DNA of 64,000 bases from Actinomycetota bacterium (GCA_030019255.1 JASEFK010000006.1:154553-218552); one strand, 5' to 3'. Shown: positions 6,604 through 28,174, counted from the stretch's first letter. Notes: generated from the sequence alone by a model not told the origin. Numbers and translations: made by a program.

Positions 6604-6844
6604 CTGAGCTGGTCGGTGGTGCGGCTGCGCACGGCGAGAAGGGTCAGGGGGGCGGGTTGGGAACGGGAATTTGCCGCTCCCTGGGAAATGAACCGTAAGA
6701 GCAGGATACAAGGATGCGGGAATTTATAATCTTTATGTCGGCCGGATGCCATGCTCCTTGCTCCCTGGGCAATCCCAAGGAGACATATCGAGCTTTTAAA
6801 GTTCTACGACCCACGTGCACCACGAGCAGGGAAAGGGGGATGAG

Positions 6845-8608
6845 ATGACCGAGGACCTGGACCGGATAAGCGAGGCGCGCCGTGCCTGGGAGGAGGGGCC
6901 CCTGGCCAAGGCCCTCCAGAGGTTCCCCTACCTGAACAAGGACAGCTGCCGCTTCTACACTCCCCTGGACATCGAGCCCTTCGACTTTTTGGAGAAGGTC
7001 GGCTTCCCGGGCACCTACCCCTTCACCGCCGGCACCTTCCCCATCGAGCCCATGGCCGGCCTGGCCCGCCTGGCCTCCCTGGCCGGGGGAAAGGGGGAGA
7101 TACCCGGGGCCGGTGGCCAGACCCGCGCCGCCATCTACTCCGGGTACGGCACCCCGGAGGACACCCGGGACTACTACAGGGGCCTTATCGAGCAGGGGGG
7201 ACGGGGAGGTCCCAACCTGGCCTTCGACCTCCCCACCCAGTGCGGCTACGACTCCGACCATCCCCTGGCCGAGGGGGAGGTGGGCAAGGTGGGGGTGTGC
7301 GTGGACACCCTGGCCGACTTCGAAATCATCTACGAACCCTACCGAGGGGACCTCGACCTGGACCGCATCGCCTCCAACTTCACCATCAACGCCCCGGCCA
7401 ACGTGATCATCGCCATGTACGCCGCCCTGGCCGAGAAGCGGGGCATACCCCTGGAAAAGTTGCGGGCCACCCCCCAGAACGACATCCTTAAGGAGTACAT
7501 CGCCCGGGGGACCTATATCTTTCCCCCGCGGCACGCCCTGCGCATGTTCCGGGACAGCCTGGTGTTCATCACCCGCCACATGCCCAACGTGAACATCACC
7601 AGCATCGGCGGCTACCACATCCGGGAGGCCGGGGCCACCCGGGAACAGGACCTGGCCTTCTCCATGGCCATCGCCATCGAGTACCTCAGGGTGGGGGTGG
7701 ATGCAGGCCTCCAGGTGGACGAATTCGCCCCCCGCTTCACCTTCAATGCCTTCGGAGGCTCCATGGAGATGCTCAAGGAGATCGCCTTCCAGCGGGCGGC
7801 GAGGCGCATGTACGCCAGGATACTGAAGGAGCGTTTCGGGGCCCGGGACGAGCGGAGCATGCGCATCCGCCAGGCCCTGGGGGCTCACATCGGGCCCTCC
7901 TCCACCACCCTACAGCGCCCTCTGAACAACCTCACCCGGGCGGTCATCGGGGCGGTGGCCAGCGCCCTCTCCGGCGGCCGGCCCCTCCCCTTCCCTCCCT
8001 ACGACGAGCCCCTAGGCCTGGGGTGGAGCCTGGAGGCCCTCCAGCTGGCCCAGGACGCGGGAAGGATCATCGCCTGCGAGGCGCGGCTCCTCGAGTATGC
8101 CGATCCCTTCGCCGGCTCCTACTGCATGGAGTCCCTCACCGACGAGATCGAGAGCGCCGCCTGGGAGGAGCTGGAGAAGATAGAGAAGATGGGCGGGGCG
8201 GTGGCGGCCATCGAGAACGGCTACATGCAGAGGGAGATATCCCGCAGCGCCTACGAGCGCCAGCGGGCCATGGAGCGGGGGGAGAGGCTGGTGGTGGGGG
8301 TGAACTGCTTCACCGGGGAGCACGAGCTGGAGGTGACCACCAACCGGCTGGTCCCCAACCCCTACGACCCCGAGAGGAGGGAACGGGCGGAGGAGAGGCA
8401 GAAGGCCCGCCTTTCGGAGATCAAAAGGTCCCGGGACAACCGGGAGGTGGCCCGGCTCCTCCGGGAACTGGAGGCCCTGGCCAAGAGGGAGGAGGAGAAC
8501 CTCATCCCTCACCTCATCCAGTGCGTCAAGGCCTACGTGACCGAGGGGGAGATATGCGAGGTGCTGCGGGGAGTCTTCGGGGAGTACCAGGCGGTCTCCC
8601 CCTTCTGA
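6845..8608 (+). CDS. divergent acyl-CoA mutase large (substrate-binding TIM-barrel) subunit, methylmalonyl-CoA-mutase family, lacking a fused B12 domain
   Basis: 587 aa. The first half ...YTPLDIEPFDFLEKVGFPGTYPFTAGTFP...AFDLPTQCGYDSDHP... and the C-terminal half with the acidic/Arg-rich coiled tail (LIPHLIQCVKAYVTEGEICEVLRGVFGEYQAV) match the MCM alpha / IcmA architecture. The canonical FTRG(P/V)Y-P-MY motif is replaced by FTAGTFPIEPM. AAAGGGGGA RBS 4 nt before ATG 6845. The B12 domain is encoded separately at 10937. Confidence 0.75.
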   Translation: MTEDLDRISEARRAWEEGPLAKALQRFPYLNKDSCRFYTPLDIEPFDFLEKVGFPGTYPFTAGTFPIEPMAGLARLASLAGGKGEIPGAGGQTRAAIYSGYGTPEDTRDYYRGLIEQGGRGGPNLAFDLPTQCGYDSDHPLAEGEVGKVGVCVDTLADFEIIYEPYRGDLDLDRIASNFTINAPANVIIAMYAALAEKRGIPLEKLRATPQNDILKEYIARGTYIFPPRHALRMFRDSLVFITRHMPNVNITSIGGYHIREAGATREQDLAFSMAIAIEYLRVGVDAGLQVDEFAPRFTFNAFGGSMEMLKEIAFQRAARRMYARILKERFGARDERSMRIRQALGAHIGPSSTTLQRPLNNLTRAVIGAVASALSGGRPLPFPPYDEPLGLGWSLEALQLAQDAGRIIACEARLLEYADPFAGSYCMESLTDEIESAAWEELEKIEKMGGAVAAIENGYMQREISRSAYERQRAMERGERLVVGVNCFTGEHELEVTTNRLVPNPYDPERRERAEERQKARLSEIKRSRDNREVARLLRELEALAKREEENLIPHLIQCVKAYVTEGEICEVLRGVFGEYQAVSPF

Positions 8609-11401: not shown

Positions 11402-12763
11402 TCAACCCTGGTAGGCACGCACCAGCCTATTCACGTGCTCCAGATTCTCCAGATCCCGCAACATCTCCAAGGTGGAATCGGCGACCCGGTAGCTCAAAAC
11501 GCTCCCCACGCATTCGCGGTATTTATCGTAGATCTGCTCCTCGCTCATGGGATTGCCGGGTTCGCCGAGGGGCCTTTCGGCCTTCCCCACCGCTTTCCCG
11601 CCGGACTTCAGGTGCACTACCACCTCGGAGGCGAAAGGGCTAGTGATCTCCCCTTCCAGGTCCTGCCAGTCGAAGCGGCGTATCACATGCACTATCGGCT
11701 CCGAGGTGACCACCTGGTCCCTGAACTGCCCCACTCCCACCTTGCCCCAAAGCAGGGCGGCGGCCACGCAGAACTCCAGGCTAAACTTTCCCTCCGTGCC
11801 CGTCTTCGGCTCGTGGTAGACGAGCACCGATCGCAACCAGGAGGGCACCCGGCACTCCACCCTCTCCACCTCGGAAGCGTCGATATTTCCCATCTTCTTC
11901 CATTCCTCCCTGGCCGCCAGGGCGGCGTCGATAGCGCCCTGGGGGCCGCGGCAGCAGGGATAGGGCTTGTAGGAGAGACCGGGGTCGATGAGCTCATAGG
12001 GCTCTCCGAGGGTCCCGGGTAGCTCCCCCGCTTTCTCCAGGTCGGAAGTGAAGACCCGGGCGAATCCGTTCTCCCCGTAGAGAGCATCCGGGTTGGCGGT
12101 GAACCCCCGGGAGGCCAGCTGGGCGGCCATAATCCCGTTCATGGCCGCGACTCCGGCGTGGAGGGGCTTGGTCATGGTTCCGAAGTTAGCCCGGATGCCC
12201 GTGGCCAGGGAGCAGGAGATGCCTAGGGCATGGACCATCCTTTCCTCGGCGAGCCGCAGGAGCTTGCCGCAGGAGGCGGCGGCGCCCAGGACCCCCAGGG
12301 TACTGGTATGGTGCCAGCCCAGCATGTAGGAGTTCCCGCCCAGGGCCGCTCCGACCTTGGCTGCTACCTCCAGGCCGGCCACGTAGGCCAGTAGGCAGTC
12401 CCTTCCCGGGGACTCCAGAACCTCCCCCAGGGCCAACACGGCCGGGACCAGGGCCACGGAAGGATGGCCCATCATGCGGAAACTGACGTCGTCGTAATCC
12501 AGGGCGTGGGCGGCTGTCCCGTTGGCCAGGGCAGCCCAGGGTGCCGCGCTTTTCTTGAAACCGTAGAAGAGGGTGGCTTCACCCTTTGCACACATGGAAT
12601 CCACCCACTCGGCGGCGATGCGTGAACTCTCATCCTCCAGGCCGGCTATGGTGACCCCCAGGCAATCGATGAACGGGAGCTTGGCCGCCTCCACCACCTC
12701 TCCCGGCAAGTCCTCGTACTTCAGGCCACAGACGAACTTCCCCACTTCCAAGAGCTCGTTCAT
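11402..12763 (-). CDS. MmgE/PrpD-family protein (2-methylcitrate dehydratase / cis-aconitate decarboxylase superfamily)
   Basis: Minus-strand translation MNELLEVGKFVCGLKYEDLPGEVVEAAKLPFIDCLGVTIAGLEDE...HALDYDDV...GHPSVALVPAVLALGE...TKPLHAG... is typical of PrpD/MmgE. An AAGGGGGG RBS 6 nt upstream supports the ATG at 12763. The listed ORF start 13102 adds about 113 junk codons. Confidence 0.8.
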   Translation of the reverse strand: MNELLEVGKFVCGLKYEDLPGEVVEAAKLPFIDCLGVTIAGLEDESSRIAAEWVDSMCAKGEATLFYGFKKSAAPWAALANGTAAHALDYDDVSFRMMGHPSVALVPAVLALGEVLESPGRDCLLAYVAGLEVAAKVGAALGGNSYMLGWHHTSTLGVLGAAASCGKLLRLAEERMVHALGISCSLATGIRANFGTMTKPLHAGVAAMNGIMAAQLASRGFTANPDALYGENGFARVFTSDLEKAGELPGTLGEPYELIDPGLSYKPYPCCRGPQGAIDAALAAREEWKKMGNIDASEVERVECRVPSWLRSVLVYHEPKTGTEGKFSLEFCVAAALLWGKVGVGQFRDQVVTSEPIVHVIRRFDWQDLEGEITSPFASEVVVHLKSGGKAVGKAERPLGEPGNPMSEEQIYDKYRECVGSVLSYRVADSTLEMLRDLENLEHVNRLVRAYQG

Positions 12764-13099
12764 TTTCGACCCCCCTTGTTCGTTTTTCATACCCTTAACC
12801 GGTATCAACCCGTCCACTTCCCGGCTCCACCCCCGTTGACGCCCCGGGGTTCCGGGGCTGGCCCACGGGAGGGTATACCGGGTACCGCTCACGCATCCAT
12901 GCCCCTTTTCAGATCGCCTCTCGCCCGAAGAAGCCCCCGTCAAACCCCGGATCACCGTAACGGTAGAGGAAGCCGACTCCCGCCCTTTCGAACCGTGGCT
13001 CAACCAATGGTATCCTTTCCACTCCCCTCCGGAAAAGACCAGCAGCCGGAGTGAGGCCACCACGGTTATCGATATGAAACCGAAGCCCAGCCGACACGA

Positions 13100-13330
13100 C
13101 AATTATGCACCATGAACTTAACCTTCAATTTTCCTGATGATATCAAAGATACCAACGGGCGTAAAGAAGGGGTTCATGTTTCAAATTTTTTCTTTATTTA
13201 AGCCAGATATAAAAATTCTGTCGGCGCATCTGCGCATTAATTATTTTAGGATTGTTGTACTTTCCTACTTTACATATAGTGAACTTTCCTCCATAATTAT
13301 TCGCGCGGGCTGACGGACGACAACGGGCGG
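13100..13330. promoter_or_regulatory. AT-rich divergent promoter island between the PrpD-family gene (-) and the acyl-CoA ligase gene (+)
   Basis: About 230 bp at roughly 30% GC inside a ~67% GC genome (…caaattttttctttatttaagccagatataaaaattctg…ttattttaggattgttgtactttcctactttacatatagtgaactttcc…). The genes on each side diverge from it. Confidence 0.5.
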
Positions 13331-13480: not shown

Positions 13481-15031
13481 GTGACAACGATGAACGTGGG
13501 CAACTGGGCCACCAAGCGGGCGCTCTTCCCGCTCACCAGGGACAAGACGGCCTTCATCAGCGGTGACCGCTCCCTTACCTACACGGAGTTCAACCACCGT
13601 GTTAATCAAGTGGCCAACGGCTTACTGGAGGCGGGCCTCAAGAAGGGCGAGCGGGTGGCCGCCCTCTTCTTCAACAGCATAGAGTTCATGGAGGTGTACT
13701 TCGCCTGCGCCAAGGCGGGGTTCATCTTCATCCCCCTCAACTTCCGCCTCACGCCCCAGGAGCTGAACGATATATTCACCGACACCAATCCCCGGGCCTT
13801 CTTCTTCCACCCCGAGTTCGCGGGCACGGTGGGACAGCTGCGGGAACTCTACCGCGAACCGATAGAGGTTTTGGCCACCGCCGGGGAGCCAGTGCCGGAG
13901 TTCGCCTCCCCTTACGAGGAGTGGCTCTCGGAATTCGGGGAGGAGGAGCCCGCGGTCCACGAGCCCCCGGGCATGGAGGACCCCCAGATGATCATGTACA
14001 CCTCGGGAACCACCGGGCGGGCCAAGGGGGCCGTGCTCCCCCACCGCAAGACCTTCTGGAACACCTTCAACGACACCCTGGAGCTGCTCTTCGACATGGA
14101 GGCCGTATCTCTGGTCTCCATACCCCTGTTCCACTCCGGGGGCCTGAACATCATCACCATGCCCACCTTCTACATAGGGGGCACCACGATCTTCCAGAGG
14201 TTCTGGAACCCCGAGGAGGCCCTGCGCCTCATCGAGCGCCACCGGGTCACCCACTTCGGGGCCGTGCCCACCATGCTCCAGATGATGCTGGACGTTCCCG
14301 ACTTTTCCCGCTACGACCTGAGCTCCCTCAAGGGGGTGGGGGTGGGAGGAGCCCCCGCCTCCCGGGAGCTTTTGGACCGCATCCTGGAGCGGATGAAGGT
14401 GCCCCACCTCATCCAGGTCTTCGGGTGCACGGAGACCTCCATCGTCCTCTCCTGCTCCAACATGGAAAAGATCGGCAGCGCCGGCATCCCCATGTTCCAC
14501 GCCGAGGTCCGGGTGCTCAAGGAGGACGGCACGGAGGTGGTACCGGGATCCGGCGAGGTGGGGGAGATATGCACCCGGGGCCCCTACGTCATGCTCGGCT
14601 ACTGGAACCTCCCCGAGGAGACCGCCGAGGCCATGAAGGACGGGTGGTTCCACTACGGGGATCTGGCCACCGTGGACGAGGACGGGTACGTATATATCGT
14701 GGACCGCAAGAAGGACATGATCATCTCCGGGGGGGAGAACATCTACCCCGCGGAGGTGGAGAAGGTGCTCGCCGAGCACCCCAAGGTGAGGGACGTGGCG
14801 GTCATCGGCATGCCGGACGAGAAGTGGGGGGAGGTGGGCCACGCCCTGGTGCTCCTGGAGGACCCCGAGGACCCCCTGAGCCTGGAGGAGATGGAGGCCT
14901 TCTGTGCGGGGAAGCTGGCCCGTTACAAGATACCTAAAAAGATCACCTTCGTGGATGCCATCCCCCGCACCCTCACCGGCAAGATATTGAAGAAGGAACT
15001 GCGCAGGCTCTACGGCGGGGGCCGGGATTGA
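13481..15031 (+). CDS. AMP-forming acyl-CoA synthetase / ligase (ANL superfamily)
   Basis: AMP-binding P-loop MYTSGTTGRAKGAVLPH, plus the GYWN...ET, GDLAT...DEDGYVYIVDRKKDMIISGGENIYP and TLTGKILKKELR motifs. 516 aa. Confidence 0.9.
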   Translation: MTTMNVGNWATKRALFPLTRDKTAFISGDRSLTYTEFNHRVNQVANGLLEAGLKKGERVAALFFNSIEFMEVYFACAKAGFIFIPLNFRLTPQELNDIFTDTNPRAFFFHPEFAGTVGQLRELYREPIEVLATAGEPVPEFASPYEEWLSEFGEEEPAVHEPPGMEDPQMIMYTSGTTGRAKGAVLPHRKTFWNTFNDTLELLFDMEAVSLVSIPLFHSGGLNIITMPTFYIGGTTIFQRFWNPEEALRLIERHRVTHFGAVPTMLQMMLDVPDFSRYDLSSLKGVGVGGAPASRELLDRILERMKVPHLIQVFGCTETSIVLSCSNMEKIGSAGIPMFHAEVRVLKEDGTEVVPGSGEVGEICTRGPYVMLGYWNLPEETAEAMKDGWFHYGDLATVDEDGYVYIVDRKKDMIISGGENIYPAEVEKVLAEHPKVRDVAVIGMPDEKWGEVGHALVLLEDPEDPLSLEEMEAFCAGKLARYKIPKKITFVDAIPRTLTGKILKKELRRLYGGGRD

Positions 15032-15290: not shown

Positions 15291-16091
15291 ATGAACCAAG
15301 AAGAGGAGCTCCTGGTGGAGGTGAGGGAGCCCCTGGCCTTCCTCACCATCAACCGGCCGGAGCGCCGGAACGCCCTCTCCGTCTCCCTCCTCGTCTCCCT
15401 GGCCCAGGCCCTCCAGGACCTGGCCGAGAAGGGAACGGTGCGCTGCGCCGTGCTGCGGGGGGCGGGGGACCGGGCCTTCTCCGCGGGCATGGACCTCACC
15501 GCCATCCCCGAGGGTCTCCCCGCGGAGGTCCAGGAGCGCATCCAATCCCAGGGCCCCCTGCAGTACGGCCTGGAGGCCATCGAGGAGTGCCCCTTCCCGG
15601 TCATCGCCATGATCCGCGGCTACTGCGTGGGGGCGGGGTGCGAGACCAGCATGGCCTGCGACCTCCGGGTGGGGGCGGAGGACTGCCGCATGGGGATGCC
15701 CCCCGCGCGCCTGGGCATCGTCTATCCCCCCGAGGGCCTGCACCGCTTCCTGCGCACCATCGGCCTGGCCGCCACCCGGAAACTCTTCCTCACCGCAGAG
15801 CTCTTCGGTGCCCACGAGGCCTACCAGATGGGCATGCTGGACTACCTGGTCCCCGTCCCGGAGCTGGAGGCCTTCACCGAGGATCTGGCCCGGCGCATAG
15901 CCTCCAACGCCCCCCTCTCCATCTCCGGGCACAAGCGCATGCTGCGCATGCTCACCCACCCCCTTCCCCTGGCTGAGGAGGAGCGCCGGGAGGCCGATGC
16001 CATCATGGCGCGGGCCCTGGCCAGCGAGGACGCCCGGGAGGGCATCGCCGCCTTCCGCGAGAAGAGGGACCCGGTGTTCAGGGGTAAATAA
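15291..16091 (+). CDS. enoyl-CoA hydratase/isomerase (crotonase fold)
   Basis: LTINRPERRNALS...LRGAGDRAFSAGMDL...IAMIRGYCVGAGCE... show the classic crotonase oxyanion and catalytic segments. GGGAGG RBS. Confidence 0.85.
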   Translation: MNQEEELLVEVREPLAFLTINRPERRNALSVSLLVSLAQALQDLAEKGTVRCAVLRGAGDRAFSAGMDLTAIPEGLPAEVQERIQSQGPLQYGLEAIEECPFPVIAMIRGYCVGAGCETSMACDLRVGAEDCRMGMPPARLGIVYPPEGLHRFLRTIGLAATRKLFLTAELFGAHEAYQMGMLDYLVPVPELEAFTEDLARRIASNAPLSISGHKRMLRMLTHPLPLAEEERREADAIMARALASEDAREGIAAFREKRDPVFRGK

Positions 16092-16263: not shown

Positions 16264-16279
16264 GTTCACTTTTACTAAA
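16264..16279. promoter_or_regulatory. 16-nt motif GTTCACTTTTACTAAA in the AT-rich island upstream of the GRE operon
   Basis: Identical to the reverse complement of 6588-6603, and 15/16 identical to 24126-24141. Confidence 0.5.
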
Positions 16280-16333
16280 ATAAGCCTCAAGATGATTGCT
16301 GTTATTAAGGCATAATAAGAAATATTAATAATT

Positions 16334-16349
16334 TATTACTATAGTAATA
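16334..16349. promoter_or_regulatory. perfect 16-bp palindrome TATTACTATAGTAATA (candidate operator) upstream of the GRE operon
   Basis: Read directly. It is its own reverse complement. It lies in the 16240-16400 AT-rich island, about 400 nt upstream of the GRE start. Confidence 0.45.
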
Positions 16350-16748
16350 GTGTAAATTGCTTACTTAAACGCTTTTGAATTTTGACTAACTAGGATTCGG
16401 AAAAACGTCTGTACCACCGCCCGATTATTCCGCAGCAGGATTCGCCCCACGTGATAAGCAGCCATCGAGGGGGTGAGCTTTCCCCGTTTGAGGAACCGTG
16501 AAAGGCGAATCGGCCGATGAGCTCCGCAGGAGCGTGAAAGAGAAGGTGCGCGGTTTTCGTCTCAAATAGGGGGCTCGTGAATGGAAAGGCGTGCCATTCG
16601 CGAGGGCAACGGGCACGGACATCCGGCCGGAGAGGCTGTCGGGAAGGGAGGGATGAAAACCCGAAAGGAAAGCAGTGGGATTTTCTCGGTTTGAAGGAAA
16701 GAACGTTGCTTTCACAAGCGGGGGGCAACCGGAAGAAGAAGGGGGTAG

Positions 16749-19241
16749 ATGATGTCGGCGGTTGAGATGCGAACCATCGAGGAGATCGAAAAGAGCGGTC
16801 AGTGGTGGTGGTGGGCGGAACACAAGAGGTCGAAACGCCTGGATTACCTGCGCAAGGCGGTATGGAAAAAGGGGGCCAAGGGCTCCGGTTACCAGCCGGG
16901 AGTGAAGGTGGACCTGGAGAGGGCCGTCCTCTTCACCGAGGCCTTCAAGGCCAACGAGCACGACTCCCTGCGCATGCGCTATGCCAAGGCTCTGGCCAAC
17001 GTGTTCGACAACATCACCATCTTTATCCAGGACCACGCCCAGATCATGGGCTACCTGGGTTCCCGGCCCCACACCATCGTGTGGCACCCGGAGATCCTCT
17101 TTCTGCTCAACGAGGACCTGTATAACGACCGCACGGTCATACCTGAGCCTGTGGATGAGAACCTGAAGCTCATCCGGGAGCTCTGCGACTACTGGAACCC
17201 CCAGACGGCGGGGGCCAAGGTCTTCAACCTGGTCCCACCGGAGGAGATCGTCAAGCTCCTAACCGGGGTTATCGGTTGGGGGCTTCCCATCTCCCGCATC
17301 GGCTACGCCACCAAGCAGTGGGACTACATGTTCCGCTTGGGTCTGGAAGGCATCATAGCTGAAATAGACGAGCGTATTAAGGAGGCCGAGGAACGCATTT
17401 ACAACAAGGTGCCCGATCCCGAGGACCTCCCCTACTACGAGAAGCTTGACGTCTGGAAGTCCATGAAGGTGGTGCTGGAGGCGGTCATCCGCTGGGCACG
17501 CCGCTACAGCCGCCTGGCCAGGATCATCGCCGAGCACTTCGAGACCGACCCCCAGCGCAAAGAGGAGCTCCTGCGCATCGCCGAGGTCTGCTGGAAAGTG
17601 CCAGCCAAGCCCCCGGAGCACCTGCACGAGTCCCTGCAGTTCGACCATTTCATCCAGATTGCCTGCCGCTACGAGGCCTGCGAGGGCGCCTGGCCGGCCC
17701 GCCCCGATTACTGGCACGGTCCCTTCTACGACAAGGACGTCAACCGGGACAAGATCCTTACCCGGGAGGAGGCCCTGGATCTCACCGGAGAGTTCCTCAT
17801 CCGCTGCTACGAGGTGGGATGGTTCTGGTTGATGCTGGCCCGCGACACCCTGCAGGGCATCACCGGGACCTGGGTATGGACAATCGGCGGGGTTAACGAG
17901 GACGGGACCGACGCCTGTAACGACATGACCGACTGCCTGCTGGAAGCGGCCCGCCTGGTACGGGTGGCCAATCCCACCTTCGCCTTCCGTTACCATCCCA
18001 ACGTGAGGATGCAGACCCTGCGCCAGGTCTTCGAGTGCATCCGGCAGGGATTGGGATATCCTTCCATGCGCAACGATCCCATCCTCATCACCAACGCCAT
18101 GCATTGGCACAGGCATCCGTTGCGGGAGGCGCGGCGCTGGGTGCACCAGGCCTGCATGTCCCCCTGCCCGGATACCAAACTGGGATGCCAGCCCTTCCGC
18201 ATGGCCAACGCCACCATCATCGCCGCCAAGGCCATCGAGTATGCCCTATTCGACGGGTACGACAACGTGCTCCAGATGCAGTTCGGACCCCATACCGGGG
18301 ATGCCACAAAGTTCGAGACCTTCGAGGAGCTCTACCAGGCTTGGTACACGCAGATCAAATGGATGATGGACACCCTGGTAAAACTGACTAACGGCGGCCG
18401 CTTCATGGCCCAGTTCCTGGACCCCCGCCCCCTGCTCTCCGGACTCTACGAGCGCTGCGTGGAGCTGGGCGTGGACTCCTCCCATCCCTCGGAGCGCGGC
18501 AATTCCTGGATTACCTTCTTCGCCTGGATGGAGACCGGGGACAGCCTGGCCGCGGTGAAGAAGCTGGTTTTCGACGAGAAGAAGTACACCATGGCCCAGC
18601 TCATCGAGGCTCTCAAGGCCAACTGGGAGGGCTACGAGGAGATGCGCATGGACTTCGTGCGCGCTCCCAAGTGGGGCAACGACGACGACTACGTGGACCA
18701 GATCCACATCCGCTGCCACCGCGACGTGGCCAGGCACTCCTGGGAAATAATGGATCCCACCGGGAATCCCTGGCCTCCGCTGCCGGAGAACATCGCCGCC
18801 TACGTGACCAACGCCACCAAGGTTTGGGCGCTGCCCAACGGGAGGAGGCTTGGCGACACCCTCTACGACGGCGGGTGCTCCCCCGGGGCGGGGCTGGACA
18901 AGAAAGGTCCCACCGCCGTCCTGCGCTCGGTGGCCAAGATCGACCACATCGGGGACGTGCGAGCCACCCTGCTCAACCAGCGCCTGTCCCCCCAGCAGCT
19001 GGCCGGCGAGAAGGGCTTCCACATCTGGCACTCCTACATCAAGACCTGGGCCGAACTGGGTATCGACCACGTGCAGTTCAACATGGTGGACAACGAAACC
19101 CTGAAGGCGGCCCAGAGGGAACCGGAGAAGTATCCCGAGCTCATCGTGCGCATCGCCGGTTACAGCGCCCATTTCGTGGACCTGAACAAGAAGACCCAGG
19201 ACACCATCATCGCCCGCAACGTGCAGGAACTGGGCGTATGA
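16749..19241 (+). CDS. glycyl radical enzyme, pyruvate formate-lyase family; X-succinate-synthase-like (fumarate-adding, AssA/BssA-type) catalytic subunit, inferred
   Basis: 830 aa. C-terminal glycyl-radical motif RIAGYSAHFVDLNKKTQDTIIARNV (about 19155). Candidate thiyl Cys loop QACMSPCPDTKLG (about 18151-18165). The fumarate-adding subtype is inferred from context: two small 4-Cys subunits, ferredoxin-domain activases, and adjacent CoA-ligase, mutase and carboxylase genes. Confidence 0.8.
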   Translation: MMSAVEMRTIEEIEKSGQWWWWAEHKRSKRLDYLRKAVWKKGAKGSGYQPGVKVDLERAVLFTEAFKANEHDSLRMRYAKALANVFDNITIFIQDHAQIMGYLGSRPHTIVWHPEILFLLNEDLYNDRTVIPEPVDENLKLIRELCDYWNPQTAGAKVFNLVPPEEIVKLLTGVIGWGLPISRIGYATKQWDYMFRLGLEGIIAEIDERIKEAEERIYNKVPDPEDLPYYEKLDVWKSMKVVLEAVIRWARRYSRLARIIAEHFETDPQRKEELLRIAEVCWKVPAKPPEHLHESLQFDHFIQIACRYEACEGAWPARPDYWHGPFYDKDVNRDKILTREEALDLTGEFLIRCYEVGWFWLMLARDTLQGITGTWVWTIGGVNEDGTDACNDMTDCLLEAARLVRVANPTFAFRYHPNVRMQTLRQVFECIRQGLGYPSMRNDPILITNAMHWHRHPLREARRWVHQACMSPCPDTKLGCQPFRMANATIIAAKAIEYALFDGYDNVLQMQFGPHTGDATKFETFEELYQAWYTQIKWMMDTLVKLTNGGRFMAQFLDPRPLLSGLYERCVELGVDSSHPSERGNSWITFFAWMETGDSLAAVKKLVFDEKKYTMAQLIEALKANWEGYEEMRMDFVRAPKWGNDDDYVDQIHIRCHRDVARHSWEIMDPTGNPWPPLPENIAAYVTNATKVWALPNGRRLGDTLYDGGCSPGAGLDKKGPTAVLRSVAKIDHIGDVRATLLNQRLSPQQLAGEKGFHIWHSYIKTWAELGIDHVQFNMVDNETLKAAQREPEKYPELIVRIAGYSAHFVDLNKKTQDTIIARNVQELGV

Positions 19242-19305
19242 GGGAGATCGCGTTGAAACCGCCGGTGCTACCACCAGCGGGGTCGCTTGAAAAGGGGGTA
19301 GAGCG

Positions 19306-19605
19306 ATGAGCGACTGGGAACAGCTCCGCCAGCAGTGGCTGCAGGGGGCCATCTCCAAGGGGCGCCGTGATATGCCGGAGAAGGCCTGCGGCATTTGCAG
19401 TAACTTCCGGCAGAATTCGGCCTCCGCGGCCGGTGATGGTTTCTGCACGGCCATCAAGATGGGGGAGAAGAACAAGCCGGTCTTCGACAATACCGATGCC
19501 GCCGACTGCCCGCACTTCCGGGAGATCGACCGCGTGCGGACGGACACCAGTGAGTTCATGTGGGATCCCCAGTTCCGGCCGCAGAGGCAGATCCAGGAGA
19601 AGTAG
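19306..19605 (+). CDS. small 4-Cys subunit, candidate FeS-binding beta-like subunit of the X-succinate-synthase-type GRE
   Basis: 99 aa directly after the GRE gene, with an AAGGGGG RBS. Cys ligand pattern C28-x2-C31-x15-C47-x20-C68, comparable to the HiPIP-like small subunits of benzylsuccinate synthase. It is a paralog-like pattern match to 22139-22294. Confidence 0.55.
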   Translation: MSDWEQLRQQWLQGAISKGRRDMPEKACGICSNFRQNSASAAGDGFCTAIKMGEKNKPVFDNTDAADCPHFREIDRVRTDTSEFMWDPQFRPQRQIQEK

Positions 19606-19623
19606 GAGCAGCAACCGGAGAAG

Positions 19624-19851
19624 ATGGTCACCTGTTCCAGGTGCGGAAGGTCCGGCTCTTTAGCCGAGTTCGCCTACGTGGGGCAGGCCGTGGAGGTGGG
19701 ACCCGTTTCCCTGAGGCGGTGCCCTGCCTGCGGTGAACTCCTGGTCGTGGACGAACTGGAGCTGGAACGGGATGGATCATCATCTCCCGGTCCCTGGGGA
19801 CTGAGCGACATCTGGGGTAGAAAATTTACCTGTAAGAACGGGGAGGTGTGA
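19624..19851 (+). CDS. zinc-ribbon mini-protein, paralog 1 (CxxCG...EF-Y...CPxCG family)
   Basis: 75 aa: MVTCSRCGRSGSLAEFAYVGQAVEVGPVSLRRCPACGELLVVDELE... with two CxxC knuckles. It shares the pattern TC-x-RCG-xxG-x2-AEF-x-[YH]-...-R-x-CP-x-CG with the ORFs at 19855 and 22633. Confidence 0.55.
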   Translation: MVTCSRCGRSGSLAEFAYVGQAVEVGPVSLRRCPACGELLVVDELELERDGSSSPGPWGLSDIWGRKFTCKNGEV

Positions 19852-19854
19852 ACT

Positions 19855-20034
19855 GTGGTCAAGTGCGACAACTGCGGATACCAAGGGGTGAAGTCGGAGT
19901 TCCGTTACCTCTACAACACCACCCTGGACGCGGAGACAGCATACCGCGAATGTCCGCAATGCTACGCCTGGGTGGTGGTCAACGAGCTGCAGGAGGAAAA
20001 GGCCGAAAAGGAGCTCCAGAAGGGAAAAGCCTGA
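19855..20034 (+). CDS. zinc-ribbon mini-protein, paralog 2 (absent from the ORF track; 59 aa, GTG start)
   Basis: GTG at 19855, 4 nt after the stop of paralog 1. Translation VVKCDNCGYQGVKSEFRYLYNTTLDAETAYRECPQCYAWVVVNELQEEKAEKELQKGKA*. It has the same CxxCG...EF-Y...CPxC pattern. The alternate-frame ORF 19848..20234 is low-complexity. Confidence 0.45.
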   Translation: MVKCDNCGYQGVKSEFRYLYNTTLDAETAYRECPQCYAWVVVNELQEEKAEKELQKGKA

Positions 20035-20118
20035 TTCCCCCGTGGGAGTTCACGCTTTTTCCTGTGACGCTTTCCGGCTTCCCCGGCGTGTCGAGAGAAA
20101 CGGAAAAGGAGTCCTTTC

Positions 20119-21057
20119 ATGCCCGAGCAGGTATTAATCACCAACATCCAGCGCTATTCCATAAACGACGGGCCGGGAATCCGCACCACCGTCTTCCTCA
20201 AGGGCTGCAAGCTCAACTGCGCGTGGTGCCATAACCCGGAGTGTATCCATTTTTACCCGGAGATCTACTGGAAGCCCTCGCTCTGCCGGCAGTGCGGGAT
20301 ATGCTTCGACGCCTGCCCGAGGGGTGCCATACAGCCGCCTATTCCGGTAACGGGGGAAGAAGACAACGAGCACTATTACAAGATCGACCTATCTCTATGC
20401 GACCACTGCATGGAGTGCGTGGAGGCCTGCTTCTACGGCGCCCTGGTGAGGGTGGGAGAGCCGAAGACGGTGGAGGAGATACTCGACGAGGTGGAGAGGG
20501 ACATGCCCTTCTACCTGAACTCGGGAGGAGGCATGACGGTAACGGGAGGCGAGCCCACTGCCTTCCCCGAGTTCACCCTCGAGCTCCTGCGCAGAGCCAA
20601 GGAACGAGGGATTCACAACTGTCTGGACACCAGCGGGTTCTGCGCCTGGGAAATCCTGGATTCCCTGCGCCCCTACGTGGACATCTTCCTCTACGACATC
20701 AAGTGCATGAGCGCCAAGCTGCACGTCATGCGCACCGGGGTGAACAACTCGCCCATCCTGGCCAACCTGCGCCGACTGGTGGAGGTGGGAGCCGAGGTCA
20801 TCGTGCGCGTCCCGGTGATTCCCGGCTTCAACGATTCACCGGAGCACATGGAGAGGGTGGCCGATTTCCTCGCCGACCTGGGGTCCTCCATAGTTCGCGT
20901 GGACCTACTCCCCTTTCACAACTGGTGCCAGGACAAGTATCGCTGGCTGGGAAGGGAATGGGAATACCGGGACGTGGAAAGCCTGGCCGCGAGCGAGATA
21001 AGCGACCTGCAGGACATCCTCAAGGAACGCGGGCTGGCGACCACCATCGGAGGATGA
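20119..21057 (+). CDS. glycyl-radical enzyme activating enzyme (radical SAM) with a ferredoxin-like 2x[4Fe-4S] insertion, copy 1
   Basis: N-terminal IRTTVFLKGCKLNCAWCHNPE (the GRE-activase CxxxCxxC). Insertion with two Cx2Cx2Cx3CP motifs (LCRQCGICFDACPRG; LCDHCMECVEACFYG), typical of non-PFL activases such as BssD, CutD and GD-AE. This is followed by the SAM-binding G-rich GGGMTVTGGEP. Confidence 0.85.
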   Translation: MPEQVLITNIQRYSINDGPGIRTTVFLKGCKLNCAWCHNPECIHFYPEIYWKPSLCRQCGICFDACPRGAIQPPIPVTGEEDNEHYYKIDLSLCDHCMECVEACFYGALVRVGEPKTVEEILDEVERDMPFYLNSGGGMTVTGGEPTAFPEFTLELLRRAKERGIHNCLDTSGFCAWEILDSLRPYVDIFLYDIKCMSAKLHVMRTGVNNSPILANLRRLVEVGAEVIVRVPVIPGFNDSPEHMERVADFLADLGSSIVRVDLLPFHNWCQDKYRWLGREWEYRDVESLAASEISDLQDILKERGLATTIGG

Positions 21058-21066
21058 GGCGGTAAG

Positions 21067-21996
21067 ATGGGAAGCGGCGAAACCTCGGGCTACGTCAACG
21101 ACATCCAGTTCTATTCCCTGAGCGACGGGCCGGGGATACGTACCACCGTCTTCCTCAAGGGATGCCTACTCAACTGCCGCTGGTGCCACAACCCTGAAGG
21201 CCACCGCCGATTCCCAGAGGTCCTCCCCTATCGCAACAACTGCACCGGGTGCGGTAAATGCCTGGAGGTGTGCCCCTCCGGGGCCATCGAGATGGAAGGC
21301 CCCTGCCTGCCCCGTATCCGCCGTGAACGCTGCATCGACTGCTTTCGCTGCGCCGAGGCCTGCCCGGAACAGGCCCTTGTGGTGTGGGGAAAGCTGATGA
21401 CCGTGGACCAGGTATTGGCGGAGGTGGAGAAGGACAAGCCCTTCTACAAGCATTCCGGCGGAGGGCTCACGGTTTCCGGCGGAGAACCCCTGGCCCAGCC
21501 GGAATTCACTCATGATCTCCTGGCGGAGGCCAGGGCAAGGGGAATGAACACCGCGCTGGATACGTGCGGGTTCGCCCCCTGGGAAGTGCTGGAAAAGGTG
21601 CTGCGCGTCGCCGACCACGTGCTCCTGGACCTCAAGCACATGGATTCCGCGGCGCACCGCGCCTACTGTGGGGCTCCCAACGATCTCATCCTTGCCAACG
21701 CCCGGCGCCTGGCGGAAGAGGCCCGCGAGCTGCGCTTCCGGATCCCCCTCATCCCGGGCTTCAACGACGGGGAGGAAAACCTCGCCCGCACGGCGGATTT
21801 CATTCGCGGGTTGTGCCGCAATGGGAAGGAATGCGAGGTGGACATCCTGCCTTATCACCCTTACGCCGGAGCCAAGTACCGCATCTTCGGACTGGAATAT
21901 CCCTTCCCGCGGGGAGAGGGATACCCCGAGGAAAAGCTGTGCGGAATTGTGAAGATCTTCACCTCCCGGCGTCTCACGGTCACCGTGGGAGGTTGA
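21067..21996 (+). CDS. glycyl-radical enzyme activating enzyme with a ferredoxin-like insertion, copy 2 (tandem paralog)
   Basis: IRTTVFLKGCLLNCRWCHNPE; ferredoxin motifs CTGCGKCLEVCPSG and CIDCFRCAEACPEQ; GGGLTVSGGEP. Collinear with copy 1. Confidence 0.85.
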   Translation: MGSGETSGYVNDIQFYSLSDGPGIRTTVFLKGCLLNCRWCHNPEGHRRFPEVLPYRNNCTGCGKCLEVCPSGAIEMEGPCLPRIRRERCIDCFRCAEACPEQALVVWGKLMTVDQVLAEVEKDKPFYKHSGGGLTVSGGEPLAQPEFTHDLLAEARARGMNTALDTCGFAPWEVLEKVLRVADHVLLDLKHMDSAAHRAYCGAPNDLILANARRLAEEARELRFRIPLIPGFNDGEENLARTADFIRGLCRNGKECEVDILPYHPYAGAKYRIFGLEYPFPRGEGYPEEKLCGIVKIFTSRRLTVTVGG

Positions 21997-22138
21997 AATC
22001 ATGGAGGGTCGTTGGCCAAGGCGGAGGCCGGGCACCGGCAAGGCGGAACGGGCGAGCGTGGAACGATGAGAGCGTTCGGGAATTCGCGATGGAGATCGAC
22101 ACTTGGTTGAACGCTGCAATGGAGCAGGAGGTGCGACC

Positions 22139-22294
22139 ATGAGCTGTGGAGATTGCAAGTGGTTCTTCCCCCTGGAAGAAGACCCCAGCAGGGGAGACTG
22201 CGTGCGGCGCGAATCGGACGGAAAGAGCGAGTACTACACGGCCAAGCCCCATAACGCCGACGACGCCGAGTGCGAGAACTTCGAGGCCCGCTGA
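22139..22294 (+). CDS. small 4-Cys subunit, candidate gamma-like subunit of the X-succinate-synthase-type GRE
   Basis: 51 aa from ATG 22139, with a strong GGAGCAGGAGGTG RBS. Sequence MSCGDCKWFFPLEEDPSRGDCVRRESDGKSEYYTAKPHNADDAECENFEAR. Cys pattern C3-x2-C6-x14-C21-x23-C45, parallel to the 99-aa protein at 19306. The listed ORF start 22103 is a TTG extension. Confidence 0.5.
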   Translation: MSCGDCKWFFPLEEDPSRGDCVRRESDGKSEYYTAKPHNADDAECENFEAR

Positions 22295-22632
22295 GGGCGC
22301 GCAACGAACGGCGGGGGTCTTGCAACCCGTGGCCCGCTCCCGGGAACCTCGACGCATGCGTTGGTGACACGATAGTTGGCGGGTGGAAGAGGGTAACAAC
22401 GCTGCCTTGCGCCATCCCGCAAGGTATTGACCGGTATGTTCTTGCGTAGTAACGTCCGCCGCCGCAAGAGCCTCCCGGCCTGGATGTAATGCACAAGTTC
22501 AGCTCCGGCGGCGGTAAGCAAGAATCGGTCCGCGAACGCAAGGGGGGAGACGGGTTGACCCAGCTTGATCCACGCGAAAGGAAAAATGGAACATACCGGG
22601 TCGTGTAACGGCAAATGACAAGGAGAAAAGCC

Positions 22633-22980
22633 ATGCTCATTACCTGTGATCGCTGCGGCTATGAAGGCGAGGGCGCGGAATTCCGGCATATCGGCAACGT
22701 GATGTGCTGCGGCCCGCTCATCTTCCGGGAGTGCCCGAGCTGCGGCAACCCGGTGATTTGCGACCGGCAGGAGATGCGCGAGGAGATCGAGGACACGGCG
22801 CGGGAGCTATCATGTCGGGTGGAGTCGGCCATCGCTTCCGGAGACGCCGCTCGAGCCAGGGCGCTGCTTAAGGACCTGTCCTTCCTCAATCAGTGCCTCA
22901 ACCTGGAAGCCATCGACGAGTACATCCGCCTGAAAAAGAGGGAGATTCGCTTCCTGGAAAGTACTTCCACTCCGCCATGA
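22633..22980 (+). CDS. zinc-ribbon mini-protein, paralog 3 (with a C-terminal helical extension)
   Basis: AAGGAGA RBS before ATG 22633. Sequence MLITCDRCGYEGEGAEFRHIGNVMCCGPLIFRECPSCGNPVICDRQE... has the same signature as 19624 and 19855. Confidence 0.55.
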   Translation: MLITCDRCGYEGEGAEFRHIGNVMCCGPLIFRECPSCGNPVICDRQEMREEIEDTARELSCRVESAIASGDAARARALLKDLSFLNQCLNLEAIDEYIRLKKREIRFLESTSTPP

Positions 22981-23181
22981 TGCCGAAGTCGTGGCAGGCC
23001 ATAGCGGAGGGAGAAACCGACCCGGGTTCAAACCACTCCCGCCGTCGCGAAGCTCGTTGGCCGGAATCCCTCTTACCGACACATGGGTCCTGGGCAAGGG
23101 AGAAATCTCGTTGCCGGGCTTGGCAAGTTCGCAGGTAGTGATTTTCCTGTTTCCGCGCATCCGGCGTTGCGGACCGTGCTC

Positions 23182-23967
23182 TCAGTCCGGCAGCGGGGCG
23201 AGATCGCCCGCGGACACCGGGAGGACCTTCCCCCCCACCTCGAGCAACAGGTTGCCCAGCTCGTCGACCCCCACCAGAAGGCCCTCGAGTAGCGCGCCCC
23301 TCCTTTCCGGCGCCACCTCCCCTTCCTCCCGACCTCCGCGCCTCAGGCCGCATATGACAAAATCTTCCACCACTACCTGCCGCCCGCGGTAAGCCAGGTT
23401 GGCGCGGTATTCCTCCACCAGGTTTCTCCCCTCCTCCCGCAGCCGATTTTCCATTTCGCCGAGAAGGGCGTGCAGAAGTTCCTCGACGCCCCAGAGCCTG
23501 CCTTCCTCCAACAGCAGGGAGGTGGGCGGAAGCCGAGCCGGAAAATTCAACTCCTCCGGCAGGTACCCGACGTTTAAACCCAGGCCCACGATGAGGAAAT
23601 GGTCCCCGTCCCGGCGGAAGGACTCGGTGAGCACGCCCCCCACCTTTCTGTCCCCGTAGACCAGGTCGTTGGGCCACTTGCAGAGGGGCCCCGCACCTCC
23701 CAGCCTCCTCACCGCCGCCCGGGCCGAGAGCGCCGCCAGCGCCGCGGCACGGAAGGGCTCCACGTCCCGGAGTGCCAGGCTCACCAGAAGGCTCTTTCCG
23801 GGTCGGTCCAGCCAACTCCGGTCCATCCTCCCGCGTCCCGCCGTCTGGTGGACCGCGGTCACCACCAGCCCTTCCGATGCCCCCCGGGCCAGGAGCCTCC
23901 TGGCCTCCAGGTTGGTGGAGTCCAGGCTCTCGTAACGACGCACGTCCCAATGGATATCACTGCCCAA
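23182..23967 (-). CDS. birA: biotin--[acetyl-CoA-carboxylase] ligase, group I BirA without an N-terminal HTH
   Basis: BPL catalytic domain ...LDSTNLEARRL...VVTAVHQTAGRGRMDRSWLDRPGKSLLVSLAL... (GRGRxxRxW biotin-binding loop). The listed ORF start 24234 runs into the bioY coding region. The in-frame TTG at 23967 is preceded by GGAGGT and gives a 262-aa group I enzyme. Confidence 0.7.
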   Translation of the reverse strand: MGSDIHWDVRRYESLDSTNLEARRLLARGASEGLVVTAVHQTAGRGRMDRSWLDRPGKSLLVSLALRDVEPFRAAALAALSARAAVRRLGGAGPLCKWPNDLVYGDRKVGGVLTESFRRDGDHFLIVGLGLNVGYLPEELNFPARLPPTSLLLEEGRLWGVEELLHALLGEMENRLREEGRNLVEEYRANLAYRGRQVVVEDFVICGLRRGGREEGEVAPERRGALLEGLLVGVDELGNLLLEVGGKVLPVSAGDLAPLPD

Positions 23968-24822: not shown

Positions 24823-24987
24823 GGGCCGCGGAAGGCATCCGGATTTACCCGGTGAATTTACACGGTGTAGCGTGGGTCTTCCGGGAAAGCGAAGGGCTTT
24901 ACCGCCGGGAAAGCCGTGCTTCATGAAAATAAGGCGCGGGAAAGATTACAATGGTTTCGAAGGCCCGAATCCGGTGAAGGGGTGAAA

Positions 24988-26829
24988 ATGGATAAAAAGA
25001 AAAGGCTGGTGATGGTAACCGACACCACCCTCCGGGACGCCCATCAGTCCCTGTGGGCCACCCGTATGCGCCTCACCGACATACTACCCATCGCCGAGCG
25101 CATCGACGAGGTAGGTTACCATTCCGTGGAGGTCTGGGGCGGGGCCACCTTCGACGTCTGCATGCGTTACCTCAACGAGGACCCCTGGGACCGCCTGTAC
25201 CGCATCCGGGAGAAATTCAAGCGAACCAAGCTCCAGATGCTCCTGCGCGGCCAGAACCTGGTGGCCTACCGTAACTTTGCCGACGACCTGGTGGAGGAAT
25301 TCATCAAGCGGGCGGTAGCCGGGGGGATCGACATCATCCGCATCTTCGACGCCCTCAACGACGTGCGGAACATGCAGAAATCCATAGAGGTCACCAAGCG
25401 CGAGGGCGCCCACGCCCAAGGCACCATCTGCTACACCATAAGCCCGGTCCACACCATCGAGGGTTACGTGGAGACGGCCAAGACCCTGGTGGAGATGGGG
25501 GCCGACTCCATATGCATCAAGGACATGTCCGGCATCCTCGCCCCTTACGTGGCCTACGAACTGGTCAGGCGCCTCAAGGAAGCGGTGGAAGTGCCCGTCC
25601 AGCTCCATTCCCACGCCTCCACGGGAATGGCCTCCACTTCTTACCTGAAGGCCATCGAAGCGGGCGCGGACATCGTGGACTGCGCCGCGGCGCCGCTTGC
25701 CCTCTATACCAGCCAGCCGGCCATAGAGACCCTGGTGGCTTCCCTCAAGGACACGGAGTACGAGCTGGATTTGGACTTCGAGGCCATCCGCGACGTGTCG
25801 GAATACTTCGAGGTGGTGTCCAAGAAGCGCAAGCTGATGGGTGCCGAGCAGCCCCTCATCGACATCACAGTTATCTCCCACCAGATACCCGGCGGCATGG
25901 CCACCAACCTCATCGCCCAGCTGGAGCAGCAGAACGCCCTGGACCGCATGGAGGAGGTCCTGGAAGAGATTCCCAGGGTAAGAAAGGACATGGGCTACCC
26001 TCCCCTGGTAACCCCTACCAGCCAGCTGGTGGGAACCCAGGCCGTCTTCAACGTGCTCCTAGGGGAAAGATACAAGATAATCCCGCGCGAGATCGTCAAC
26101 TACGTGAAGGGCTATTACGGAAAACCTGCCGGGCCCATAAGCGAGGAGCTCATGGAGAAGGCGCTGAAGGGCGAGAAGCCCATCACCTGCCGGCCGGCGG
26201 ACCTCCTGGAGCCTGAGCTACCGAAGGCCAAGAGGGAGCTCGACCCCTCCCTGGTGGAGAAGGAGGAGGACTATATCTCCTACGCCATATTCCCGGACGT
26301 GGCCCTCAAGTTCTTCCAGTGGAGGAAGAACCCGGTCATCGACGAGGAGGAGGAGGAGCCCCCGCAGAAGGCCATGGAGAGGCGGGAAAGGGCCATGCTG
26401 GACGGGACCTACCTGGAGGAGCTTTCGGCGAAGCTGGCGGACGTGGTCAGCGAGGGGGTGAGCAGGGCCCTGCAAAACCTGACAGTGACCATAAGCTTGG
26501 GGGGGCAGGTCGCGGCGGCGGAGGCGGCCCCGGCCCCTTCCCGGCGGGCGCAGGTGGCGCAACTGGAAAGGGAGGAGCTGGGGTTGGTACAGGTGAGGTC
26601 CCCCATGGTGGGTACCTTCTACCGCACCCCCTCTCCCGGCGCGCCGCCCTTCGTGGAGGAGGGCGACGAGGTCAAGGAGGGCCAGACCCTCTGCCTCATA
26701 GAGGTCATGAAGCTCTTCAACGAGATACCCTCCCCAGTGGACGGCCGGGTGAAGCGCATCCTGGCCGAGCACGGCAAGGGCGTGGAATACGACGAAGTGC
26801 TCATGGAAATCGAGCCCTCGGGAGGGTAG
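24988..26829 (+). CDS. pycB: pyruvate carboxylase subunit B-like protein: 5S carboxyltransferase (HMGL-like TIM barrel) plus C-terminal biotin carboxyl carrier domain
   Basis: N-terminus VMVTDTTLRDAHQSLWATRMRLTDILPIAERIDEVGYHSVEVWGGATFD... (pyruvate/oxaloacetate carboxyltransferase). C-terminal biotinyl domain ...GQTLCLIEVMKLFNEIPSPVDGRVKRIL... (biotinyl-Lys in the E-x-MK-x motif). GAAGGGG RBS before ATG 24988. The ORF track start 24916 is an upstream extension. Confidence 0.8.
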   Translation: MDKKKRLVMVTDTTLRDAHQSLWATRMRLTDILPIAERIDEVGYHSVEVWGGATFDVCMRYLNEDPWDRLYRIREKFKRTKLQMLLRGQNLVAYRNFADDLVEEFIKRAVAGGIDIIRIFDALNDVRNMQKSIEVTKREGAHAQGTICYTISPVHTIEGYVETAKTLVEMGADSICIKDMSGILAPYVAYELVRRLKEAVEVPVQLHSHASTGMASTSYLKAIEAGADIVDCAAAPLALYTSQPAIETLVASLKDTEYELDLDFEAIRDVSEYFEVVSKKRKLMGAEQPLIDITVISHQIPGGMATNLIAQLEQQNALDRMEEVLEEIPRVRKDMGYPPLVTPTSQLVGTQAVFNVLLGERYKIIPREIVNYVKGYYGKPAGPISEELMEKALKGEKPITCRPADLLEPELPKAKRELDPSLVEKEEDYISYAIFPDVALKFFQWRKNPVIDEEEEEPPQKAMERRERAMLDGTYLEELSAKLADVVSEGVSRALQNLTVTISLGGQVAAAEAAPAPSRRAQVAQLEREELGLVQVRSPMVGTFYRTPSPGAPPFVEEGDEVKEGQTLCLIEVMKLFNEIPSPVDGRVKRILAEHGKGVEYDEVLMEIEPSGG

Positions 26830-26833
26830 AAAC

Positions 26834-28174
<1,341 letters not shown>

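Follow-up and report, generated by a model that had tools for sequence, protein, structure and literature searches.

A probable (1-methylalkyl)succinate synthase or alkylsuccinate synthase locus, complete in its parts, in an uncultured hot-spring actinobacterium

Anaerobic alkane activation by addition to fumarate is a major hydrocarbon sink, and the structure of the enzyme was solved only in 2025. Here we consider a stretch of 64,000 nucleotides from an Actinomycetota bacterium (GCA_030019255.1, JASEFK010000006.1:154553-218552; the window, below), in which positions 16749-22980 very probably encode a complete (1-methylalkyl)succinate synthase or alkylsuccinate synthase (MASS/ASS) in an actinobacterial host. 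The solved MASS is an alpha2-beta-gamma2-delta complex, in which MasB and MasC are [4Fe-4S] proteins akin to the high-potential iron-sulfur type (HiPIP-like) (Andorfer et al., PNAS 2025, PMC12358834), and each of its subunits has a counterpart here. Eight co-oriented open reading frames (ORFs) on the plus strand were confirmed across the locus, namely alpha, beta, two delta-like genes (d1 and d2), two activases (AE1 and AE2), gamma and a third delta-like gene (d3), and the translations bear out both the gene order and the cysteine spacings given by an earlier reading made from the sequence alone. That reading had proposed an X-succinate-synthase-type glycyl radical enzyme (GRE) with small iron-sulfur subunits; the class stands, and its framing as an enzyme like benzylsuccinate synthase (BSS) gives way to the alkane-activating MASS/ASS subclass. 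Taken by itself, the window offers an ordinary, if complete, instance of a known system, and it extends the known enzyme to a lineage of hot-spring actinobacteria that is uncultured: the host and the layout are new, the machine is known. More novel than the window are the comparative leads that it opens, which are three delta subfamilies, a pairing of one of them with an activase clade, and a cysteine or selenocysteine redox dyad.

The catalytic subunit alpha (16749..19241, plus strand, 830 aa), a homologue of AssA and MasD, belongs to the GREs by its PFL-like and Gly_radical domains (Pfam PF02901, E=5e-130; PF01228, E=2e-28), and its best solved relative is MasD (PDB 9o8u_A; 1128 bits, E=0), followed by BssA (4pkc) at 559 bits and all remaining GREs at no more than 345 bits. 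Its radical site is Gly804, within RIAGYSAHF, and Cys469 lies in the catalytic Cys loop. Residues were mapped through the window-MasD alignment, with the residue roles taken from PMC12358834 (the numbering of the PDB chain is that of the paper plus 12). On this mapping Cys469 corresponds to Cys477 of MasD, Arg484 to the fumarate-binding Arg492 (Arg508 in BSS), Glu680 to Glu690, Tyr186 to Tyr194, Thr589 to Thr598, Phe591 to Phe600, Trp177 to the gate Trp185, and Gly804 to the radical glycine; none of these positions, including the fumarate arginine that marks X-succinate synthases, varies when 12 homologues (61-88% identity) are aligned. By the published correspondence between MASS and BSS, the positions of Gln707, Ser199 and Asn615 of BSS are held by Glu680, Tyr186 and Thr589, so that these three, together with Phe591 and Trp177, are kept as in MASS. 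The sequence-only reading had staked itself on small-subunit similarity and on fumarate-binding residues, and both were found, the residues being the MASS variants and not those of BSS.

The lone difference in the mapped pocket is at its far end, where Phe192 of MASS is replaced by Ile184. This replacement bears on the reading that comes closest to the preferred one, in which an ASS-type enzyme acts on a substrate other than a medium-chain n-alkane, be it propane, butane, long-chain paraffins, cycloalkanes or some other saturated compound of geothermal fluids. Such a substrate is a real possibility, though not one that we would favour: alkylsuccinate synthases cover C3-C16 (PMC13450708) and the alphas of the actinobacterial loci group apart from the others, but the remaining mapped pocket and fumarate residues are the same as in MASS, and the sequence suggests no specific alternative.

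Homologues of the two small iron-sulfur subunits of MASS are encoded as well. The beta gene (19306..19605, plus strand, 99 aa) encodes a MasB homologue with the pattern C28-x2-C31-x15-C47-x20-C68 in its translation; the four cysteines align with the [4Fe-4S] ligands C32, C35, C51 and C86 of MasB (9o8u_B, E=9e-12) and are predicted to bind such a cluster, which gives the locus the MasB-type beta of MASS/ASS. The idea that beta is BssB-like was not upheld, as a search with Pfam BssB_TutG (PF18512) gave no hit for the 99-aa protein and only a sub-threshold one for gamma (17.6 bits against a cutoff of 25.6). A resemblance of beta to HpdC, the small subunit of 4-hydroxyphenylacetate decarboxylase (HPAD), is faint (NF033716, E=0.052, 13.9 bits against a cutoff of 50). 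Gamma (22139..22294, plus strand, 51 aa; C-x2-C-x14-C-x23-C) is, as had been proposed, a true member of the BssC/TutF family expected of X-succinate synthases, passing Pfam BssC_TutF (PF08201) with E=1e-13 and 51.5 bits against a cutoff of 25; its four cysteines align with those of MasC (9o8u_C, E=2.5e-11) and TutF (E=3.7e-7). In a Pfam and NCBIfam scan of the small proteins, a curated family was obtained for gamma only, the beta and delta proteins giving sub-threshold zinc-ribbon or HiPIP noise, and these were identified by sequence search against solved structures. The suggested paralogy of beta and gamma, in the manner of BssB and BssC, is only weakly visible in sequence: their four cysteines stand in register, but hhalign gives P=0.005 and a probability of 6.9%, and the paralogy rests mainly on the HiPIP-like fold common to the beta and gamma subunits of MASS (PMC12358834). 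A more general claim, that only fumarate-adding GREs carry small iron-sulfur subunits, does not hold, since HPAD has one (PMC12358834, PMC13450708).

MASS has in addition a delta subunit, MasE, a rubredoxin-like protein with a single Fe that holds the glycyl radical domain by its C-terminal tail and occupies the place where the activase has to bind (PMC12358834). Its role was called enigmatic by the authors of the structure (PMC12358834), and a 2026 review of GREs, which mentions one delta only, describes it as still undefined (PMC13450708). The small genes that the sequence-only reading called zinc-ribbon genes are no extras; on the matches to 9o8u_D they are homologues of this rubredoxin-like, Fe-binding subunit: E=2e-10 for d2 (19855..20034, plus strand, 59 aa, GTG start), E=5e-6 for d1 (19624..19851, plus strand, 75 aa) and E=1.4e-3 for d3 (22633..22980, plus strand, 115 aa), with Cys4, Cys7, Cys33 and Cys36 of d2 aligned to Cys3, Cys6, Cys32 and Cys35 of MasE. 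A comparison set of 78 AssA/MasD loci plus the window (L079) was used, with a hidden Markov model (HMM) for each part mapped on all of them. Three conserved delta subfamilies run across these loci: T1, which is MasE-like, with a FRYLYN core and a PWGKS tail; T2, of about 112-116 aa, whose N-domain is rubredoxin-like and whose C-domain is helical; and T3, located directly upstream of activase pairs. The subfamily HMMs were trained on non-actinobacterial sequences only, and each delta of the window scores best on a different one, d1 on T3 (42 bits; 36 on T1), d2 on T1, the MasE orthologue type (60.7 bits), and d3 on T2 (52 bits). The rubredoxin core is present in all three genes; d2, the best match to MasE, keeps the FRYLYN core and ends right after the rubredoxin-like domain, without the PWGKS tail of about 20 residues; and a PWG-containing tail (PWG...WGRKF) is found on d1 only, a member of another subfamily, which has the pattern CxxC-x25-CxxC and the C-terminal tail PWGLSDIWGRKF.

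The T2 member d3 has C5, C8, C34 and C37 in its N-domain, besides a conserved C25-C26 dyad and C43. In its AlphaFold2 (AF2) model, which has a confidence (pLDDT) of 80, residues 1-43 make up a beta-rich metal-knuckle domain that leads into a bundle of three helices. Foldseek superposes the N-domain on 9o8u_D with a probability of 0.98 and a root-mean-square deviation of 2.4 A over 45 columns, at an E-value of 0.36 that, the domain being so small, falls short of significance. In 18 of the 78 loci (L011, L013, L020, L022, L026, L039, L043, L045, L046, L055, L061, L065, L067, L068, L071, L073, L075 and L078) the T2 gene reads TGA, in frame, precisely where its homologues encode a cysteine, within CKNG[C/U]PA[C/T]GESD; the equivalent in the window is Cys25 of the d3 dyad (about 22705-22707), and L011 has U-C. 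A hairpin begins 10-11 nt past the TGA in most of these loci, though none is apparent in L011 or L078, and in the cysteine loci that were inspected a synonymous change from CTC to CTG breaks it. These are the classical marks of a selenoprotein whose dyad is redox-active, and the T2 proteins of these 18 loci are probably of that kind; no literature linking selenocysteine to ASS accessory proteins was found.

Both activases belong to the GRE-activating family, scoring 344.8 bits (AE1; 20119..21057, plus strand, 312 aa) and 332.9 bits (AE2; 21067..21996, plus strand, 309 aa) on NCBIfam TIGR02494 against a cutoff of 174. They carry the motifs C30-x3-C34-x2-C37 and C33-x3-C37-x2-C40, respectively, each with two ferredoxin-type motifs, and are 44% identical to each other. 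In a neighbour-joining tree the activases fall into two clades that span phyla. The canonical clade of AE1 holds all single activases, and the second conserved clade (E2), to which AE2 belongs, holds the downstream member of every activase pair in both Deltaproteobacteria and Actinomycetota, which argues that the duplication is old; AE2 groups with Desulfatibacillum-type loci in which a delta gene precedes the pair (dEE, with E for an activase gene and d for a delta-like one). Two further activase HMM hits, near 42 and 46 kb, were discarded, since Pfam identifies them as a CCG-domain protein and an FAD oxidoreductase.

The second activase seems to have a partner. Among the non-actinobacterial loci, a delta gene stands directly upstream of the activases in all nine that have E2 (L017, L024, L025, L032, L043, L046, L058, L060 and L067) and in none of the 21 that lack it. 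Moreover, AE2 is missing from three actinobacterial loci (L003, L004 and L008), absences that may amount to one or two independent losses only, and in these three the d1 tail motif PWG..WGRKF has decayed, whereas the tail is kept in exactly the six actinobacterial loci that retain AE2. Taken together, the co-occurrence of E2 with T3 and the decay of the d1 tail where AE2 was lost suggest that the T3 delta is functionally paired with the second activase clade.

Viewed across the set, these parts come in several different orders. That of the window (AbddEEgd, with A, b and g for alpha, beta and gamma; AbddEgd in loci without AE2) is restricted to the window and eight actinobacterial loci, L001-L008. 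Elsewhere one finds EbgAdd (for example in a Desulfatibacillum alkenivorans locus), EgAbdd(d) in Desulfobacterales, which is the bssDCAB order with delta genes added, dEEbgAd and Adbgd, and strain HxN1 has masB-C-D-E-transposase-G. The window order is a lineage-specific permutation, and there is no single textbook ass/mas order from which to depart. The sequence-only reading had regarded a gamma gene downstream of the activases as unusual, and so it is, being confined to those nine actinobacterial loci among the 78 and the window; the gene content, on the other hand, is common. It is the norm to find two or three delta-like genes, nine deltaproteobacterial loci have activases in tandem, and nothing in the eight-part list (alpha, beta, gamma, T1, T2, T3 and both activase clades) is missing from the D. 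alkenivorans locus L060. Judged by these subfamilies and clades, the three deltas and two activases are no local oddity; they are old and are held in common with Desulfatibacillum-type clusters. Literature searches on how the T2 and T3 genes and the second activase are named in strain AK-01 yielded little.

It is tempting to build on this, and we do so tentatively, with less than even confidence. The accessory apparatus of ASS may be larger than the solved alpha2-beta-gamma2-delta complex, comprising a T1 MasE, a T3 delta paired with E2 and a T2 protein with a redox Cys-Cys or Sec-Cys site; as the T1 delta has lost its tail in this actinobacterial version, T3 (d1 here) could have assumed the gating of the glycyl radical domain, the whole could form a second circuit for activation, re-activation or radical protection that is peculiar to alkane-activating GREs, and Geothermincolia-type Actinomycetota could be anaerobic alkane oxidisers of hot springs. 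Speculative, too, is the thought that d1 substitutes for the missing tail of d2, that AE2 works with d1 and that d3 is a thiol-based redox partner.

Several points weigh against reading the locus as a MASS/ASS. The assignment of function rests wholly on homology, and the chain length of the alkane cannot be read from the sequence; Phe192, a residue lining the extended alkane pocket of MASS, is Ile184 here. The T1-type delta d2 has no tail of the kind by which delta touches the glycyl radical domain in the MASS structure, so that the delta role may be split differently here. In beta, the third and fourth cysteines are spaced C-x20-C against C-x34-C in MasB, leaving a loop about 14 residues shorter than the one that wraps and shields the [4Fe-4S] cluster of MasB in MASS (PMC12358834), and the AF2 prediction of beta, with a pLDDT of 46, is unusable. 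Finally, d1 is weakly constrained, with a G+C content at third codon positions (GC3) of 0.68 and non-synonymous changes that equal or outnumber the synonymous ones against most orthologues.

The last of these points feeds a further explanation, that the locus is a horizontally acquired remnant, non-functional or decaying, and that its small ORFs, d1 above all, are not real genes. The G+C of the cluster, at 58-62%, is lower than the 65-69% of parts of its flanks, d1 has many non-synonymous differences besides its low GC3 and is skipped by gene callers, and three related metagenome-assembled genomes (MAGs) have lost AE2. Against it, all eight reading frames are intact in the window and in eight related MAGs, with catalytic and ligand residues conserved; third-position changes dominate among the orthologues of d1, d2 and d3, the latter two being under clear purifying selection; and d1, which evolves faster and has a lower GC3 than its neighbours, keeps its frame and four cysteines in all nine actinobacterial loci and its tail in the six with AE2. 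We regard a remnant as very improbable. The weakest contender, to which we give slightly less credence still, is a BSS-like X-succinate synthase for aromatic or allylic substrates, with BssB/BssC-type beta and gamma and with unrelated neighbours for its zinc-ribbon genes, which can point to the match of alpha to BssA, to the BssC_TutF family of gamma with its TutF match and to 292 bits for AE1 on the BssD model, yet against a cutoff of 496, and which founders on an alpha that scores twice as high against MasD, on Glu, Tyr and Thr at the three diagnostic BSS positions, on a 99-aa protein that matches MasB and not BssB_TutG, and on small genes that match MasE, a subunit that BSS lacks. An HPAD-type enzyme was also tried and rejected, with 240 bits on NF033715 against a cutoff of 1150 and the sub-cutoff NF033716 score given above.

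With a MASS/ASS as the preferred reading, a mechanism and subunit roles can be inferred by homology to the 2025 structure of MASS. A radical-SAM activase would place the radical on Gly804 of alpha, from where it would move to Cys469, and the resulting thiyl radical would abstract a hydrogen from the alkane. The alkyl radical would then add to fumarate, kept in place by Arg484, the Cys loop, Glu680, Tyr186 and Thr589. Gamma, MasC-like and with a [4Fe-4S] cluster, would stabilise alpha; the MasB-like, [4Fe-4S]-bearing beta and Trp177 would gate the entry of the alkane; and the rubredoxin-like deltas would govern how the glycyl radical domain moves, competing with the activase for one and the same surface. 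The known downstream steps would fall to the products of the flanking genes, namely the CoA ligase, mutase, MmgE/PrpD protein, hydratase and biotin carboxylase.

The gene boundaries follow from the sequence and from independent annotation. The mechanical gamma ORF (22103-22294) opens at a TTG at 22103, and its start was corrected to the ATG at 22139, which has AGGAGG 7 nt upstream and is the most likely start, giving 51 aa. Similarly, within the ORF 22615-22980 the most likely start of d3 is the ATG at 22633, preceded by AAGGAG, which gives 115 aa. Where the same locus was called independently, in four other public assemblies, the products are of exactly 830, 99, 59, 312, 309, 51 and 115 aa, the 75-aa d1 being the one that automatic callers skip in these four. 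Gamma and d3 are separated by a spacer of 338 nt (22295-22632), for which conservation at the DNA level was not found in related MAGs; an antisense ORF at 22234-22689 overlaps it and is probably spurious. Upstream of alpha lie 657 non-coding nt (16092-16748), which may be a promoter or regulatory region of the operon; no sigma-70-like site of the region scores better than the one found there (TTGAAA-17-TAAAAT, 16253-16281, 10 of 12 matches). An Rfam scan of 15900-23400 found no RNA family at E<=1, and terminator-like hits across the region were no more frequent than expected from shuffled sequence.

As to the host, the d3 protein is 100% identical to one recorded as from Candidatus Solincola sp., and the closest of the 78 loci come from Ca. 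Solincola and Ca. Geothermincola MAGs and other Actinomycetota, with alphas 86-98% identical; on these identities the host is a Candidatus Solincola sp., an actinobacterium of hot springs that is uncultured. Over 22 kb, L001 and L002 run colinear with the window, their aligned blocks having about 72-90% nucleotide identity. The actinobacterial alphas are at most 74% identical to those of any non-actinobacterial locus of the set, and the nearest of these, at 74%, belong to a deltaproteobacterial MAG, in whose loci the order is A-b. The G+C content is 58-64% in the synthase cluster (16001-24000) and 65-70% in parts of the flanks, which is compatible with an old horizontal acquisition. Literature searches combining Geothermincolia or Solincola with alkylsuccinate or fumarate addition found nothing relevant, one broad search being uninformative owing to its ranking, and a search with "hydrocarbon" returned only a review of cultivation methods and a list of Candidatus names.

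The surroundings of the cluster hold further genes of likely relevance. On the plus strand upstream are the large subunit of a methylmalonyl-CoA-mutase-family enzyme (6815..8608; Pfam MM_CoA_mutase, E=6e-137), suited to the carbon-skeleton rearrangement step, an AMP-dependent acyl-CoA ligase (13481..15031; Pfam AMP-binding, E=3e-89), probably the alkylsuccinate-CoA ligase, and an enoyl-CoA hydratase/isomerase (15291..16091; Pfam ECH_1, E=9e-50); an MmgE/PrpD family protein, also a Pfam hit, is encoded on the minus strand (11402..13102). Downstream, BirA (23182-24234, minus strand) and BioY (24220-24822) lie ahead of a biotin-dependent carboxylase pair on the plus strand (24916..28174), a 5S carboxyltransferase with a biotinyl carrier followed by a biotin carboxylase, identified by Pfam and colinear in L001 and L002. 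This neighbourhood fits the known alkylsuccinate pathway, because mutase, MmgE/PrpD and carboxyl transferase genes recur in the ass clusters of Desulfoglaeba alkanexedens, MmgE/PrpD in its cluster 1 (PMC7180275). Directly after the mutase-family gene comes one for a protein of 743 aa (8609-10840), conserved in related MAGs, which combines a radical-SAM domain with a PDZ domain at its C-terminus. Further downstream, within 42303-45193, an HdrD-like protein with a CCG domain and an acyl-CoA dehydrogenase are encoded, perhaps for beta-oxidation, and beyond them lies an AddAB-type helicase-nuclease pair at 48669-55546 that looks ordinary.

Among the known systems set beside the locus is HPAD, whose HpdC is likewise a small iron-sulfur subunit of a GRE with a HiPIP-like fold; HPAD, however, catalyses a decarboxylation and has one small subunit with two clusters, and the window alpha scores only 173 bits against its structure (2y8n). 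BSS (bssDCAB or tutEFDGH; PDB 4pkc, 5bwe) shares fumarate addition, homologous alpha, gamma and activase, and HiPIP-like small subunits, and differs in having no delta, a beta of the Pfam BssB_TutG family, and Gln707, Ser199 and Asn615 in place of Glu, Tyr and Thr. Of the ass clusters, that of D. alkenivorans (L060, dEEb..Agd..d) has the full parts list, and those of D. alkanexedens have the ancillary mutase, MmgE/PrpD and carboxylase; their alphas are about 60-63% identical to that of the window and their order is permuted, whereas in the window six genes part gamma from alpha and a T1 delta parts the T3 gene from the activase pair. The MASS of the betaproteobacterium Azoarcus/Aromatoleum sp. 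HxN1 (masBCDE and masG; 9o8u; PMC12358834) has the same four subunit types and a radical-SAM activase, identical fumarate-binding and gate residues, and metal-ligand cysteines that all align. The window, from an actinobacterium, differs from it in the order AbddEEgd, in three delta-like genes against one and two activases against one, in a MasE-type delta without a tail, in a beta loop about 14 residues shorter, and in the change from Phe192 to Ile. Overall, gene order is fluid in these operons while the parts list is conserved.

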